Source of the DNA: a virus
Length of the DNA: 64,000 bases
Virus record (IMG/VR): IMGVR_UViG_3300020442_000011
Location: 32,001-96,000 of that record
Direction: 5' to 3' (one strand)
Numbering within the stretch: position 1 is the stretch's first letter; every line of letters starts with the position of its first letter. A program made the position numbers and the translations under genes. The notes beneath the pieces are model-generated. The model was not told the DNA's origin. It was given only the letters and a program-made list of their open reading frames with translations, and made no database searches. Below are positions 31,074 to 62,088 of this stretch, in pieces.

Positions 31074-32612
31074 ATGAACAATTTAAAGTTGGATGTTTAC
31101 TCACACGGGGTACGCCTACATGGCTACACCCGTAACCTCTTTGGTGAGATCGTTCATTTTTTGAGTCGTTTGGAACTAAAAGAGGATAAACGACTACCTC
31201 GTCACCAAGGTGGTGGTATGGTGACCGTGGTGAGAAAGAAGTTTTTTGGTATTTTGAATTCTAAGCGTGAGATATACATCCATCGACATCACCTAGAAGC
31301 ACTATTGACGTTTCTAAAGGGATGTGGTTTAACCGAACAAAATTTTATCATTGAATACATTGACCCACCTAAGGGTCAGCGTATAGAAGGTGTGGAAATA
31401 TTTGATCACTTTGTTGAGAGGGACTATCAAGGTATCCTGATACCCGAACTTGCTGAAGATGTACAACGATCACGTAAAGTGGATTTGGCCACGGGTTTGG
31501 GTAAAACGTTCTGTTCATTAAAAGCGTGTCTTCTTAGAGGTGAACGTTTCTCTGTAATGCTTGCCCCTAAATATTTCGGTCTATGGATCGGAGCATTAAA
31601 TGATACGTTCAAGACCTTTAAAGATGTACCAGGACAATACATCACTGTGTCTGGTGGTAATGAATTGCGTATGGTGATGCAGCAAGCACTGGACGGAACA
31701 CTCGAAGCAAAAGCCATTATCATTTCAAACACAACGTACCGTAACTATATCGAAGCCTATGAGCAATTCGGTGAGAATATCGTTGACCATGGTTATCTGG
31801 TTCCACCTCAGCGATTCCATGAGCTTCTGGGTATAGGTACGCAGATCAACGATGAATTTCATGAGGATTTAGGTTTAACCTTCAGGATAGACTGTTTTAC
31901 GAATATCAAGAAACAGCTCTATTTGTCCGCTACGCCGTTTAATGGTGATCGGTATGTCACAGATATGGTGGATGTCATGTTGCCTCCTGAGACGTACTGT
32001 ACAATCCCTGAGCCCCCTAAATACATCAACGTATTGGAACTTCTCTACCAAGACGATGTAGAAGCGCGTGATTACTTAACTCCCCAAAAGAATAGTTATA
32101 ATCATGCACGATACGAAAAGATGATGTTAAAGAAAAAACGCCGCCTCAACACGTATTTCAGCAAAGTTGCTAAGGTGGTTGATAAAGCATTTGTTAGTGA
32201 TTTTGAACCTGGTCAGAAGATGCTCATTCTGTGCGCGACAGTCGACTTCATTCAAGCATTGACAAAATATCTCAAGGTCCAATTCCCGAACGTCAAAATA
32301 GGACACTACGTTAGTGGTGTTTCTTACGACACGGTGAAAGCTCAGGACATCACCGTATCAACGATCAAGTCGGCTGGAACAGGGGTCGATATACGTAACC
32401 TTCGTGAAACCCTACTTTTACAGGCGGTAGGGTCGGATAAGGATAACATCCAAATCTTAGGACGTACACGTCCGTTAAAAGACTTCCCTGATGTCACACC
32501 GCGCCTTATCTACTTCACGTGTATTGACATCAGACAACACCGTAAATACGCTCAGAAGAAGAAAGAAACCTTCGCTGGTCGTATATTACATTCTCGCACG
32601 ATGCGCTTATAA
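31074..32612 (+). CDS. superfamily 2 DExH helicase (phiKZ gp75-like)
   Basis: LATGLGKT, NDEFH, LSATP, GTGVDI and QILGRTR motifs. Confidence 0.92.
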   Translation: MNNLKLDVYSHGVRLHGYTRNLFGEIVHFLSRLELKEDKRLPRHQGGGMVTVVRKKFFGILNSKREIYIHRHHLEALLTFLKGCGLTEQNFIIEYIDPPKGQRIEGVEIFDHFVERDYQGILIPELAEDVQRSRKVDLATGLGKTFCSLKACLLRGERFSVMLAPKYFGLWIGALNDTFKTFKDVPGQYITVSGGNELRMVMQQALDGTLEAKAIIISNTTYRNYIEAYEQFGENIVDHGYLVPPQRFHELLGIGTQINDEFHEDLGLTFRIDCFTNIKKQLYLSATPFNGDRYVTDMVDVMLPPETYCTIPEPPKYINVLELLYQDDVEARDYLTPQKNSYNHARYEKMMLKKKRRLNTYFSKVAKVVDKAFVSDFEPGQKMLILCATVDFIQALTKYLKVQFPNVKIGHYVSGVSYDTVKAQDITVSTIKSAGTGVDIRNLRETLLLQAVGSDKDNIQILGRTRPLKDFPDVTPRLIYFTCIDIRQHRKYAQKKKETFAGRILHSRTMRL

Positions 32613-32629: not shown

Positions 32630-33076
32630 ATGGCTTTAAAGGTAGATCCCAGTAAAATGGAAAAGATTGTAGCATTGTTTTATGGTGCGCAATCAACTCG
32701 CGACAAAGTACCTGCAGGCGGCGCGCTTGATAAATTAACAATGGTGACGGCCACCCACGGTCGTTTGATGTTAGCGACAGAGGAGTTTCCCGTTGACTTC
32801 ATCATTCAGTCGTATGATCTTAAACCCAAAGAGGTATGTGATCAACGCAATGGTGAATTCATCCGTGAATTGGTGGATCACTTGGGTGCATCACATCTAT
32901 ACTCCGCTCTCACTGATGCCATGAAGAAGGATGGTTTCGTCATTGAGATTGTGGGTGACAAAGTCATTGCTAACCCTCTCAAGCAATCGTTTGGTGAAAC
33001 GGACGAGCAAGAACCGGCGCGTCCAGTAAGTAAAACATATTACGTGGAACATCACCCTGACGACGTGGTTGAATAA
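32630..33076 (+). CDS. hypothetical protein
   Basis: GGAG SD, 148 aa. Confidence 0.7.
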   Translation: MALKVDPSKMEKIVALFYGAQSTRDKVPAGGALDKLTMVTATHGRLMLATEEFPVDFIIQSYDLKPKEVCDQRNGEFIRELVDHLGASHLYSALTDAMKKDGFVIEIVGDKVIANPLKQSFGETDEQEPARPVSKTYYVEHHPDDVVE

Positions 33077-33086
33077 CGACATAAAA

Positions 33087-33117
33087 AGACCCTTCCCACA
33101 TGGGAAGGGTCTATGTC
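33087..33117. terminator. bidirectional terminator
   Basis: AGACCCTTCCC-acat-GGGAAGGGTCT, flanked by GACATA and TATGTC. Confidence 0.8.
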
Positions 33118-33132
33118 CGACTAACCTTTTTT

Positions 33133-33669
33133 TTATTTTTTTGGCTTTGTTTGGTAGTGCTGGGCCTCGGCTTGAAGTTGACCTTCTAGTGATGACGTTG
33201 TCTTTTCGTATTGTCGGATATGAGCTTTAGCCATCTGGCAAAGCATCTCCGCATCATGGTACTCCATATCGAAGAAACCGTGAATGTCTAACCCAAAGTG
33301 TTCCTTTATCTTTAGATGATAGAACTTACGAAAATAGTCGAGCTTCAGGCTACCTTCATAGATGTCTTCCTTAGGATGATAGGCTACAAGCGCCAACGGG
33401 CGTTTCTGAGCCTTTTCAAGATCCGAGTGAGGAAAGATACCATATTGGTTCTGATAAGCCGTCTTGGTTAGTCTTTCGGCGGTTATAGAGGTCACAGCAG
33501 GAAGTGTCTTAGCTAGATTGATTAATTCGTTAACACCGCCCTTCGGTATGTACCCAAACGACAACATTGTGACGTGGCCGTTTGGATCACTACTGTCTAT
33601 AGAAAGACGTGTATACCTTGGGTCAGTGTTAACGTCGTTTAATCCCTGAGCTTCCGGCTGTGCAGCGTA
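33133..33669 (-). CDS. probable -1 frameshift extension (GT-like part) of the upstream gene
   Basis: frame is open from the T8 run to 33133; ATG 33567 has no SD; FGLDIHGFFDMEY motif. Confidence 0.6.
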   Translation of the reverse strand, partial: YAAQPEAQGLNDVNTDPRYTRLSIDSSDPNGHVTMLSFGYIPKGGVNELINLAKTLPAVTSITAERLTKTAYQNQYGIFPHSDLEKAQKRPLALVAYHPKEDIYEGSLKLDYFRKFYHLKIKEHFGLDIHGFFDMEYHDAEMLCQMAKAHIRQYEKTTSSLEGQLQAEAQHYQTKPKK

Positions 33670-35525
33670 AAAAAAACCTTCATCATGTCAAGCGCAACAA
33701 GATGAGGGAAACGACTGTTAAACTTCTTCGCCACAGGTGTGTCACAGGAAGGACAATTAAACGAAGGAACTGCAATAATACCAAGCATGCAATCGTCAAT
33801 GAACTTCCCTACGTGTTCGAAGAATGTTTCAACGTTTTCGCTATCGGAGAACGTTGTCGAGAGTACCGATTCGATAAGTTCCCGATCACTACTCAATTCG
33901 ATCGGTTCGCTACTGTCTTCACTCTGCTCGTAAACCGCACTTACCCAGTGTGCGTATTGCTGCGCTGAAGTAGCTAACGCAAGTTCTTCGATGTAACGTG
34001 CACGAGACGAACCATGGGGTGGTTCGTTGTAGGCTTTGTTGGTCATCTCTTTAAGACTGTCGATCCAAGCATAACCTGCCAGCTCGTATTCATAGACACT
34101 GGGTACGCGGAGTTTTAGACCGATACCATCATCGAACCATACTGTGCGTTCAATACCACGCCGGTGTTCACTGCGATAAGTCTCCAGTTCTTCATTCGTG
34201 GATGGGCGGTCCCAATTACGTTGAGCCAACATGCGACGCTGCTTCTCAGATAGAGACGACATGTCATACCAAATGAGGTTATTGAGGTTCAACGTCTCTT
34301 TAACTTCATGCTGACACTTTTCAGGGTCTGCCACACAGGCATGTGTATACGGGAAACCACGTGGGTAAACAGTACACGCAACACCCCAGAAGAAAAGGTC
34401 TTGATCAACAAGCGCTACTTTCTCTTTGATGTCGGTCGGTGTGTTCCACTCACAGGTTGCCCCTGTTAAGAACTTGATACACCAATCAAACACCGTGGTT
34501 TTCAGTGTTTGGGACATATTAGAGAACGCAAGTCCTTTCGTCATACTACCGACAGAAAGTTTGAGTTGACCCAACTCATACTGGAGTTCTACCCAGTCAG
34601 CCAGTTTCGGCGGACGGAAACGCACCCAGAAACCTGAGAAAGGAAGCATGACATCGAACGGGACACCGCCGCCGCGCTTACGTTCGATATACATCGCGAT
34701 CTCATCTTTTGAATGAGAGCCCGGTAACATACGTTGAATCGGCGAACCAGTTCGTACAGTCTTACCTTCGTGTTGGTATTGTTGACGCCATTCGGCACCC
34801 TCACGACCAAGACTGCGTTGCCCATCGCCTGTCAATGCAGCGTGTTCATGACTATCGGCGATAGTACGTAGCCAAGGCGACCCATCATCTTTACCGACAG
34901 GTCGGCGTTGTTTCTTACGAATGTCTTGAATCCGCTTTTCATCGCGAGTGAGACGTTCGATGATACCTTGAGCAGCATCGAGGATCGCTTCGAGGTTCTG
35001 GTACGCCTCGCGTTCGATGGCGACCGGCGAGTCTTCCTCATCACCTTCTTTGAATGGGCGAGTGGTGGGGCGCTGCTCATGGAAGTCCATCGGTTTATTA
35101 ACCGGCAGCTCGGGAAAATCGATATCGGTCTTTTTAGCGAAAACAGTGATGTCAACAGGGGTTGCATTACCGTCATTGTCGAAACGACTTACTTGATCAA
35201 CATCACCGCCTTGATAGATATATTCGACAACTTTCGAAAAATCGTTATCGTCGAACAGTTTCTTACCCTCTTTATCAAGCACACGCCACGTGGCGTTCTC
35301 TTTTGCTTCCGTCATGAAAACAACGGCTTCGCCACGTTCCATCTCCCAGACAGTGTCATCTGGTAGAGTGACAACCACTAAGCCGACTTCAGCCGTTTCG
35401 TTCACTTTCTGTAGAATATCATCCAGTTCAGAAACAGAACTGGCTTCTTCAATGCTAATCTGACGACGTTCGTAGTCGTCCACTTCGAAGAGTTCAAAGT
35501 AGACAATATTCTGATCTTGCATCAT
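33639..35525 (-). CDS. conserved phiKZ gp77-like protein, candidate tail/baseplate assembly chaperone
   Basis: 628 aa; LPFSGFWV, YPRGFPY..AC and CPSC motifs; ends VFFTL. Confidence 0.7.
   Translation of the reverse strand: MMQDQNIVYFELFEVDDYERRQISIEEASSVSELDDILQKVNETAEVGLVVVTLPDDTVWEMERGEAVVFMTEAKENATWRVLDKEGKKLFDDNDFSKVVEYIYQGGDVDQVSRFDNDGNATPVDITVFAKKTDIDFPELPVNKPMDFHEQRPTTRPFKEGDEEDSPVAIEREAYQNLEAILDAAQGIIERLTRDEKRIQDIRKKQRRPVGKDDGSPWLRTIADSHEHAALTGDGQRSLGREGAEWRQQYQHEGKTVRTGSPIQRMLPGSHSKDEIAMYIERKRGGGVPFDVMLPFSGFWVRFRPPKLADWVELQYELGQLKLSVGSMTKGLAFSNMSQTLKTTVFDWCIKFLTGATCEWNTPTDIKEKVALVDQDLFFWGVACTVYPRGFPYTHACVADPEKCQHEVKETLNLNNLIWYDMSSLSEKQRRMLAQRNWDRPSTNEELETYRSEHRRGIERTVWFDDGIGLKLRVPSVYEYELAGYAWIDSLKEMTNKAYNEPPHGSSRARYIEELALATSAQQYAHWVSAVYEQSEDSSEPIELSSDRELIESVLSTTFSDSENVETFFEHVGKFIDDCMLGIIAVPSFNCPSCDTPVAKKFNSRFPHLVALDMMKVFFTLHSRKLRD
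33669..33676 (-). other. candidate programmed -1 ribosomal frameshift site (T TTT TTT)
   Basis: GTT TTT TTT ACG near the gene end; the -1 frame leads without stops into the next ORF. Confidence 0.6.
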
Positions 35526-36010
35526 TTCTTATTCTCCTCGAAGGTTTTGATTTCCATGAGTTCAGGAGCGTTTTCCTGAACTTCTTTAAATAGCTCGATA
35601 TGAAGGGAATTAATCTCTTTATCGTACTTTTCCATCATTTTGCTGTAACGCTCACTGATGCTGTACATTACAGGGTAATCCTTCGGAGCGGCACCGCCTT
35701 TCTTCCCTTTATGTAAGCTGTAGATATCCAGCAAGTCTTTTTGGAACTGACGGATACCGCCGATAAACTGACTGAGTTTGAGTTTGAACTCATCTGGGTT
35801 ATCTAATTTGCTGGAAATCTCATCCATGTTACTCAGAACAGGTAGCGTAAAGAAACTTGTCATGTAGCACTGCTGAAGAAGCTGTGAGAAAATAGTCTCA
35901 AGAACAACATAGCCTTCATCACCTTCGAGAATTTCCTTGGCAAGGATTTTATGTGTTTCCATCAGTTCATCGAAAGTGGGTGCTTGAACTTGTTCGTTAG
36001 CGGCGGTCAT
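35522..36010 (-). CDS. helical hypothetical protein
   Basis: AAGGA SD; coupled to the next gene. Confidence 0.7.
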   Translation of the reverse strand: MTAANEQVQAPTFDELMETHKILAKEILEGDEGYVVLETIFSQLLQQCYMTSFFTLPVLSNMDEISSKLDNPDEFKLKLSQFIGGIRQFQKDLLDIYSLHKGKKGGAAPKDYPVMYSISERYSKMMEKYDKEINSLHIELFKEVQENAPELMEIKTFEENKK

Positions 36011-60754: not shown

Positions 60755-62088
60755 ATATTACCAACATCATGTTGGAAGTCCAACAGGTTGCTACTCAGGG
60801 ACCTATACGGAACTCCTTTCGTTTTGACGTTTTCATCAAAGTGGAAGACCGTTGGATCAAACCTCTGCGTACAGATGTTATCACCCACCAACGTGATTAC
60901 GTCAAAGGTTACTCCCCGCTCATCTACCTGGATGTTTTCTTAGGTCGTGGGGACTATGCTTACTTAATCGAACCAAACAAAGACAAGCTAATCGTGGATG
61001 TCATTCGTCATCCTGTAGCGGATATTGGTGGGGGCGATGTTGATGAGGTAGTCACCGTTAAACGCTATCGGGCTCTCTTATTAACAAAAGACGATCCGGG
61101 TCTTGGTGATGCCCGACCACATGCATCCAACATCGATGATCTTAACCAAGAGATCATGGACGTACAATTCCAGTTGATTGAGGAAAACATTTATCAGTTA
61201 ATGATGGTAACCGTAGGACGTACCTACAGGAAAAACATTCCTATGGATGTCCTTCGCGCGTTATTGACCGATGCATCGACTAACATTGATGTCACGGATG
61301 AAGAAGCGATTACTGGGGTAGATGTAGTTGACGGCTATAACCCGAAAGTTAGGGATGCTATCATTGTCCCTCATGGAACACCTCTTGTGGATGTAGTCAC
61401 CCATTTACAAGAAAACGAAGGGGGTCTTTACAGCACTGGGGTAGGGTGTTTTCTCCAGCACAATAAGTGGTACGTTTACCCCCTATTTGATTTAAACCGT
61501 ATCGAAAGAGAAACACGTACACTTACGGTGATACGAGTACCCCCTAACAGGTTCGCAGCATCGGAACGAACATGGCGTATCTCAGCTAATCAAATCGTGG
61601 TCATTGCGAATAATGAAGTAAAGACACGAGATCTGGGTATCATCGATCAAATGTCATCAGGTAATGCGGTAAGGGTAACCAATGCCGATAACCTACTTTC
61701 ATTTACTGAGACTCAAAACAATCGTTCTTCGTTCAACCGTCGTGAAAACATGTTGGAGTTTCAGACTCATGAACTCCAAGGGGATGGACTCACGAATGCA
61801 CGTTGGGGTAGTGAACGAGCTACAGGTAATCCATTCAAAGTCTTTAGTCGCCTCGCTTCCCAAGGCGGTCAGTTTGTAGAGGTGACTTGGCTACATGCTA
61901 ACACGGATTATCTGTATCCGGGCATGCCTGTTCGTTTCTATGTAGCGAGTAACGATCAACTCCAAGAATATCACGGAACATTGCTCGGTGCTAATGATCG
62001 ATATGTCCCAGGTAAGCCAGGGCCTATTCAAGACTATTATGTCAATGAGGCACGCTTGTTGTTGTTCGTTAACCGAATACAACAATAA
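60745..62088 (+). CDS. virion structural protein (gp101-like; possible baseplate hub)
   Basis: GGAGG SD; RDYVKG, GGLYSTGVG, WYVYPLF and LYPGMPVRF blocks. Confidence 0.65.
   Translation: MAVDITNIMLEVQQVATQGPIRNSFRFDVFIKVEDRWIKPLRTDVITHQRDYVKGYSPLIYLDVFLGRGDYAYLIEPNKDKLIVDVIRHPVADIGGGDVDEVVTVKRYRALLLTKDDPGLGDARPHASNIDDLNQEIMDVQFQLIEENIYQLMMVTVGRTYRKNIPMDVLRALLTDASTNIDVTDEEAITGVDVVDGYNPKVRDAIIVPHGTPLVDVVTHLQENEGGLYSTGVGCFLQHNKWYVYPLFDLNRIERETRTLTVIRVPPNRFAASERTWRISANQIVVIANNEVKTRDLGIIDQMSSGNAVRVTNADNLLSFTETQNNRSSFNRRENMLEFQTHELQGDGLTNARWGSERATGNPFKVFSRLASQGGQFVEVTWLHANTDYLYPGMPVRFYVASNDQLQEYHGTLLGANDRYVPGKPGPIQDYYVNEARLLLFVNRIQQ

Follow-up and report, generated by a model that had tools for sequence, protein, structure and literature searches.

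Programmed −1 ribosomal frameshifting is a well known mechanism in phage tail-morphogenesis genes. The tail assembly chaperones G and GT of phage lambda have a common N-terminus, as a −1 slip on a heptamer of the G_GGA_AAG type, near the 3' end of a first open reading frame (ORF) of ~100–150 codons, leads into an ORF without a start of its own. The products E/E+E' of P2 and gp41/42 of Mu share their N-terminus in the same way, and in this group the arrangement has been kept across a large set of phages despite low sequence identity. The dnaX gene (tau/gamma) of Escherichia coli and the transposase genes of the IS3 and IS1 families of insertion sequences (IS) use bacterial-type −1 frameshifting on X_XXY_YYZ sites to obtain two products in a fixed ratio from one mRNA. 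Here we describe a candidate for such recoding in a stretch of viral DNA of 64,000 nucleotides (nt), corresponding to positions 32,001 to 96,000 of IMG/VR record IMGVR_UViG_3300020442_000011 (the window, in which all coordinates below are given). The gene concerned encodes a protein of 628 amino acids (aa) that is the homologue of phiKZ gp77, PhiPA3 gp074, 201phi2-1 gp136 and Goslar gp081. An initial annotation of this DNA had guessed a gp77-like identity, and the gene is indeed core gene cg18 of the Chimalliviridae; in the supplement of the core-genome paper, cg18 (Goslar gp081, phiKZ gp077 and RAY gp267) is listed as a hypothetical protein (PMC10299810). On comparative sequence grounds we consider conserved recoding at cg18 highly probable, and −1 ribosomal frameshifting on a U_UUU_UUY site throughout the Chimalliviridae its likely form.

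The 628-residue protein is encoded on the minus strand (33639..35525), and the 3' end of its ORF reads ...AAG GTT TTT TTT ACG CTG CAC AGC CGG AAG CTC AGG GAT TAA. The proposed shift site is the run of eight Ts (minus strand, 33676-33669) on the Val-Phe-Phe codons, nine codons before the TAA, which holds in frame the heptamer T TTT TTT (33675-33669, minus strand; U_UUU_UUU), a perfect X_XXY_YYZ sequence. The −1 frame is closed by a TGA (minus strand, 33690-33688) four codons 5' of the heptamer, so that a shift could take place only 3' of this point. From this TGA onwards the −1 frame reads HDEGFF and then YAAQPEAQ, i.e. YAAQPEAQGLNDVNTDPRYTRLSID..., and after the run it extends over 178 codons (YAAQPEAQGLNDVN...) up to a TAA at 33135-33133 (33133..33669, minus strand). 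The extension contains the called ORF 33133..33567, whose ATG at 33567 comes 34 codons after the T-run, falls within the GHVTMLSFG core of the −1 domain, and has no Shine-Dalgarno (SD)-like motif 5' of it. A −1 slip at the heptamer would produce a trans-frame protein of 797 aa, as computed from the window sequence, with the predicted junction peptide ...VFFYAAQPEAQGLNDVNTDPR, whereas the 0-frame tail TLHSRKLRD followed by TAA (33639..33668, minus strand) would be confined to the short product. The heptamer, the TGA, the 34 codons, the long product of ~797 aa and the ATG without an SD motif had all been noted in the initial annotation, and all of its coordinates proved correct on re-reading.

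A tblastn search with the 628-aa protein gave matches in 213 phage records at 20–37% identity, all from phiKZ-like phages or other chimalliviruses, with hosts including Pseudomonas, Erwinia, Salmonella, Serratia, Ralstonia, Vibrio and Klebsiella. No near-identical DNA to the window stretch was found in the phage collection. A profile of 53 sequences retrieved 1,766 representative clusters (50% identity level; E <= 0.001) from 1.84 billion proteins. The 3' ends of the genes were compared at 66 loci, 59 of them distinct, from 11 named phages (L001–L011) and 55 complete IMG/VR loci (L012–L068). Every one of the 66 has a run of 5–8 Ts on homologous Phe-Phe codons, 8–37 codons before the 0-frame stop (T8 in 15 loci, T7 in 26, T6 in 15 and T5 in 10). 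At every one, too, the downstream ORF lies in the −1 frame, is open across the T-run and continues for 151–186 further codons, the +1 frame being mostly short (5–112 codons). At many loci the −1 frame is closed 0–13 nt 5' of the run and the 0-frame stop comes as near as 7–8 codons 3' of it, which implies that the frame change has to occur at the T-run. The canonical U_UUU_UUY is present at 48 of the 66 loci, in the forms NNT TTT TTT (19 loci), NTT TTT TTT (15), NTT TTT TTC (7) and NNT TTT TTC (7). The other forms are NN(G/A) TTT TTT (8), NN(G/A) TTT TTC (5) and NTT TTT Ann (5), and an in-frame U_UUY tetramer is found in all 66. The arrangement is far beyond chance.

Codon usage at the run is under selection as well. 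The first Phe codon is TTT at 54 of the 54 distinct loci that have Phe at this position (of 59), as against 37% TTT for the other Phe codons of the same genes (naive P ~1e-35, not corrected for phylogeny), and at two GC-rich loci it is the sole TTT among 14 Phe codons. The preceding codon ends in T at 43 of the 59 loci (73%), compared to a background of 29% T at third positions, while the last (Z) position of the heptamer is variable, with TTT in 40 and TTC in 19. Six constrained positions followed by a free Z position that is read by the same tRNA-Phe are exactly what the X_XXY_YYZ rule predicts. Of the tetramers in E. coli, U_UUC and U_UUU rank second and third in their tendency to shift, heptamers of the H_HH.U_UU.Y type are among the most efficient, and U_UUU_UUC is in use by IS elements (PMC4066793).

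The downstream ORF behaves as an extension of the upstream gene. When the −1 translation was searched by tblastn from the first residue after the run, it gave matches in 67 Pseudomonas phage records, located 3' of the gp77 homologue and beginning no later than the stop codon of that gene (e.g. in PhiPA3 at 61930, with the gene ending at 61909). An alignment of 53 sequences (A4) shows conservation of the −1 peptide right from the residue that follows the run, well 5' of any start, with a Y/F-P/V-x-x-P-E... motif followed by GHV....FG, and with D-A-R-F/Y-S-R-L in the Pseudomonas clade. The first ATG in the −1 ORF falls anywhere from alignment column 3 to column 229; it lies 3' of the conserved GHV motif at 49 of 51 loci, two loci have no ATG in the −1 ORF at all, and an SD-like motif precedes the first ATG at only two of 53. 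GenBank starts for this ORF accordingly differ widely, and in phiKZ the extension corresponds to gp76.4, annotated as 80 aa of a conserved frame of 165 codons, plus the unannotated part upstream of it. We conclude that the downstream 'gene' is not an independent gene. Taken over the Chimalliviridae, the 3' ends of gp77-like genes thus have what the initial annotation had suggested looking for, a conserved U-run followed by an ORF in the −1 frame at 59 of 59 distinct loci, and what it had named as contrary signs, namely a missing T-run, varying frames or a start with its own SD motif, is not what was found. Its proposal of a hidden −1 frameshift has gained strong comparative support from the conserved site, frame, trans-frame peptide and codon choice, and from the lack of a conserved start.

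Several observations weigh against a simple reading in terms of frameshifting. The Phe-Phe dipeptide is itself conserved in the protein, so that coding explains part of the U-run, albeit not the choice of TTT. At 18 of the 59 loci the site is a non-canonical G/A_UUU_UUY or NUU_UUU_A, permitting re-pairing of a single tRNA only. No consistent downstream hairpin or pseudoknot could be identified on folding 60 nt at 57 distinct junctions (mean z −0.24); z fell below −2 at 10 of the 57, and dual coding of the overlap masks weak signals. There is also no conserved SD-like motif 5' of the slippery site. The nucleotides just 3' of the site are strongly conserved (e.g. GCCGGAAGCTCA in the Pseudomonas clade) because of the dual coding. 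Since no conserved stimulator was found, the efficiency of the slip is probably modest or low. Published RNA values for phiKZ (71442-73504) likewise do not fit easily, with PHIKZ076.4 ~6-fold above PHIKZ077, e.g. 7995 versus 1289 (PMC12571901), a ratio taken from the first columns of a supplementary table, the meaning of which was not established. This excess could mean that a 3' fragment is kept stable by the terminator hairpin, or that the 3' part has a transcript of its own. The same source gives mass spectrometry counts of 0–2 for PHIKZ077, and its antisense oligomers directed at PHIKZ077 were uninformative, being toxic to the host (PMC12571901).

The higher RNA values for PHIKZ076.4 in that table, together with the two coding sequences annotated in the GenBank records inspected, would suit two ordinary genes, the downstream ORF being translated from ATG 33567, from a non-canonical start or by termination-reinitiation, and the overlap and the T-run being incidental. 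We regard this as very unlikely, in view of the scattered ATGs, mostly inside the conserved domain and missing from two loci, the near absence of SD-like motifs, the conservation of the peptide between the run and any start, and an invariant −1 relation combined with codon selection at the run. A closer competitor is transcriptional slippage, in which the phage (non-virion) RNA polymerase would add one extra U at the T-run. This would give the identical long protein, so that protein-level data cannot separate the two mechanisms, and slippage is known to occur at A or T runs, the run in the window being T8 and that of most homologues T7–T8. In E. coli genes AAAAAAA and UUUUUUU are avoided, slippage being partly the reason (PMC4066793). 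However, 18 of the 59 distinct loci have only T5–T6, which is shorter than known productive runs (about 8–9 or more), and the constraint is specific for position, the first Phe codon being invariably TTT and the last position either T or C. A mechanism driven by run length should favour T at the last position too, and the freedom found there speaks for ribosomal frameshifting. Slippage by the polymerase is consequently considered improbable, although less so than two separate genes.

Homopolymers are also error-prone in sequencing and assembly, and the frame break might then be an artefact, or a sign of gene decay, with one continuous ORF as the true gene. The record of SEGD1, an SPN3US-like phage (L005:3545-3700), does show a single annotated ORF of 795 aa. 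This continuity is due to a 1-nt insertion that lies, with several substitutions, ~20 nt 5' of the U-run within a short divergent stretch, and a lineage-wide fusion can be rejected: a 240,413-bp IMG/VR record (L068; 3060-3180) that is 96% identical to SEGD1 is split in the normal way, with a 656-aa ORF ending in ...DRVFFVLSRVVSEIQKFLLDQYADIG, the site GTT TTT TTC, and the −1 ORF present. SEGD1 represents either a sequencing error independent of the homopolymer or a natural variant that makes the long form only; if the variant is real, the long form alone may be sufficient. In neither case does it count against the frameshift. Every independent genome or metagenome contig shows this break in frame, at runs from T5 to T8. 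The best 150 of the 1,766 clusters terminate with the 0 frame in every case and lack the downstream domain, and the 0-frame tail is itself conserved. The comparative data effectively refute error or decay, which we consider to have practically no probability left. A search for longer forms also yielded no natural fusions of a gp77-like protein with the downstream domain, which is weak evidence.

For −1 ribosomal frameshifting at cg18 we propose the following course of events. Most ribosomes would terminate nine codons after Phe-Phe and release the 628-aa short form with its short C-terminal helix. A fraction would slip back one base at U_UUU_UUU, with tRNA-Phe re-pairing with UUU in both the P and the A site, and would then read YAAQPEAQ... 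for 178 codons to give the 797-aa long form. What is observed is the slippery site, its relation to the two frames, and the fact that both are conserved and under selection at the codon level; from this we infer that the slip takes place, and how often. More speculatively, phage factors that act on the ribosomes of the host might adjust its frequency. Whether the two forms work at a set ratio when tails or baseplates are assembled, as lambda G and GT do in an unrelated family, is in our view an evenly balanced question.

Structure predictions agree with two distinct products. The N-terminal ~135 residues of the 628-aa protein are predicted to be disordered, and residues ~140–628 to be confidently folded. 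Residues 1–135 (window 35121-35525) are poorly conserved and have a predicted local distance difference test (pLDDT) score below 60, and the family proteins vary from 438 to 656 aa, suggesting that this part is probably a variable, flexible region on a conserved core. After the FF, the 0-frame tail forms a conserved short amphipathic segment, FFxLxxx(R/K)hxxI; among the best 150 of the 1,766 clusters, 146 end 8–34 aa (median 13) after an FF. In the AlphaFold2 models, residues 614–627 of this tail are a confident helix, and the −1 part is a helical domain (pLDDT 93) with a C-terminal helix of 38 residues. According to these models the long form would exchange the terminal helix for a domain of ~170 aa, and both products look functional. 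The 628-aa protein further contains Cys 397, 404, 591 and 594, in a PC...6...C and a CPxC motif (codons within window 33744-34337). Of 53 family members, 47 have all four and the other six, e.g. RSF1-like phages of Ralstonia, have none. Such co-occurrence and joint loss have the pattern expected of a dispensable structural zinc site.

A lead to a function comes from the hub assembly chaperones of T4. Foldseek searches of the BFVD with the predicted fold of residues ~140–628 retrieved first the chimallivirus homologues (E 1e-32 to 1e-17), and next about ten T4-like baseplate hub assembly proteins, chaperones or subunits of ~250 aa, with E 1e-4 to 1e-2, probability 0.96–1.0 and TMt ~0.5 over ~330 columns, the targets being predicted models themselves. 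Pfam family PF12322 (T4_baseplate), to which both T4 gp26 and gp51 belong, was matched by one of 53 cg18 members (E 5.2e-5). By hhalign, the cg18 C-terminus (AVP-x-x-CPxC ... h-h-P-h-D ... FFTL) could be aligned with the last 27 residues of T4 gp26, AVP-IKCPECGKTH-AHVI-RGLKEFFELL-end. The two thus have an AVP-x-CPxC...h-h..FFxLL motif in common, at which T4 gp26 ends, and four Cys are conserved in cg18 and invariant in the gp26 family alignment. T4 gene 26 also has two nested products, gp26 and gp26'. In T4, both gp26 and gp51 are listed as hub assembly chaperones (PMC3004832, Table 2).

Other results speak against this functional assignment. The hhalign probability for T4 gp26 was only 39%, it dropped to 8.5% against an alignment of 16 gp26 sequences, where the C-terminal motif alone was matched, and hhalign of alignment A3 with T4 gp51 covered only the CPxC stretch, at a probability of 4%. 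Neither part of the window protein has any Pfam match, and a rescan of ten divergent cg18 members did not recover the one that matched PF12322. A local hidden Markov model of gp26 found nothing significant among all cg18 members. Sequence-profile and fold searches of the PDB gave no relatives: with Foldseek nothing was below E = 1, and no entry of the gp26/gp51 family was among the PDB matches listed. A wide VIA-align search returned generic helical matches only (Z <= 5.9), and the families matched in PHROGs are solely of unknown function (4585/8054 and 12109/7580). In six-frame translations PF12322 had no match in the genome of the window or in five complete chimallivirus genomes (G001–G005, those holding L025, L021, L027, L068 and L053), even at E <= 10, the controls being silent as well. 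As no other PF12322 match is seen in the five genomes, cg18 is the only visible candidate there for a hub chaperone of the gp26/gp51 type.

The differences to the T4 proteins are also considerable. The cg18 protein is 2–3 times larger than gp26 and gp51; in gene 26 the FF codons are TTC TTT, with no U-run and no frameshift, and gp26' is a separately annotated internal coding sequence that shares the C-terminus of gp26, not its N-terminus. The comparison with gp51 and gp26, which had been suggested in the initial annotation, is therefore favoured by the BFVD folds, the single PF12322 match and the gp26 motif, while the PDB and the gp26 model remained silent. On balance we lean slightly towards cg18 being an enlarged protein distantly related to the gp26/gp51 hub assembly chaperones, and give a function in baseplate-hub assembly about an even chance. 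More generally, a role in tail or baseplate assembly, in a protein family other than G/GT, is plausible. There are indirect hints that the cg18 pair is absent from the virion: in the records of 201phi2-1, the notes for gp136 and gp135 lack the remark 'identified using mass spectrometry' that adjoining virion proteins carry, and the preprint on the structure of the Goslar virion makes no mention of gp81 and gp82. As a separate observation, T4 gene 26 (L069:5803-5860) ends with ...KEFFELL-stop, exactly at the motif where the chimalliviruses frameshift, and its stop codon and the ATG of gene 25 overlap in the sequence TAATG, so that gene 25 too lies in the −1 frame.

Compared to lambda G/GT and its counterparts in P2 and Mu, cg18 has the same logic of a common N-terminus with alternative ends, a heptamer close to where the first ORF ends, a second ORF without a start, conservation across a large phage group at low sequence identity, and a likely role in tail morphogenesis. 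In contrast, no sequence or profile similarity to tail assembly chaperones could be identified, and no family of such chaperones was among those listed for the 53 members of either alignment (0-frame or −1 part); a lead from the ESM-Atlas to P2 GpE, at 0.86, is weak and below the level at which such hits mean anything. The first ORF of cg18 encodes 480–650 aa, bearing out the remark in the initial annotation that the protein is far larger than lambda G and carries a CxxC motif (CPxC at 591/594). The slippery site is of a different type, and the gene pair does not lie between the tube and tape-measure genes; it adjoins gp78, gp79 and the beta' subunit of the virion RNA polymerase. Membership of the lambda G/GT family is therefore not supported by sequence and profile, size or gene position. 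The claim of a lambda-like chaperone pair survives as an analogy, through the N-terminus shared by way of the proposed −1 slip, and not as homology. The supposed resemblance of FGLDIHGFFDMEY to motifs of the T part was not substantiated; the segment is G-h-S-x-x-E-F, a motif conserved within the −1 domain. The cg18 site is of the same bacterial X_XXY_YYZ type as those of dnaX and the IS elements, which actually use U_UUU_UUC. Unlike cg18, where we could detect no conserved stimulator, dnaX and IS3 depend on an SD sequence 5' of the site and/or a hairpin or pseudoknot 3' of it, and in dnaX the shifted product is the shorter one. It is a tentative thought, which we hold with less assurance than its parts, that a slip on U_UUU_UUY without a stimulator sets the ratio of two forms of a giant hub chaperone of the gp26/gp51 type, and that the logic of G/GT has been reached convergently.

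In full-text searches, no paper came up that describes frameshifting of phiKZ gp77, of cg18 or in any chimallivirus, nor was an annotation of it found, in line with the initial annotation, which knew of none for phiKZ-like phages. What is new is the protein family, the clade-wide extent, and a U_UUU_UUY site with no evident stimulator. Should the frameshift be real, all chimallivirus annotations are in error here, in that the downstream protein is either missed or given an arbitrary start that cuts off a conserved part. A family-wide protein of ~700–800 aa would then be missing from all proteome databases, and its peptides would be invisible to mass spectrometry searches. A large and deep clade would join the conserved recoding events in phage morphogenesis genes, with a family unrelated to G/GT, and a simple natural signal without an obvious stimulator would become available for study in several hosts. 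The link to gp26/gp51 provides a testable function for a core gene, in baseplate hub assembly, and suggests why two forms would be needed; should the hub-chaperone reading hold, it would be the first function for cg18 and its 'orphan' neighbour.

The genes surrounding cg18 are, on one side, gp78-like, gp79-like and the virion RNA polymerase beta' subunit, and on the other side small ORFs and a RAD2/SF2 helicase. The 5' neighbour in the window is the gp78-like ORF of 162 aa (35522..36010, minus strand), whose stop overlaps the ATG of the 628-aa ORF. No promoter-like or terminator-like site was found between the 0-frame ORF and the −1 ORF in the window, and the gp78-like ORF, the 628-aa ORF and the −1 ORF form a single transcription unit. 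Directly 3' of the stop of the −1 ORF is a strong hairpin resembling an intrinsic terminator (33087..33112, minus strand; 11 bp, 7 of them GC), followed by a T-tract. It is located between convergent genes, as the plus-strand ORF 32630..33076 ends close by, and may act in both directions.

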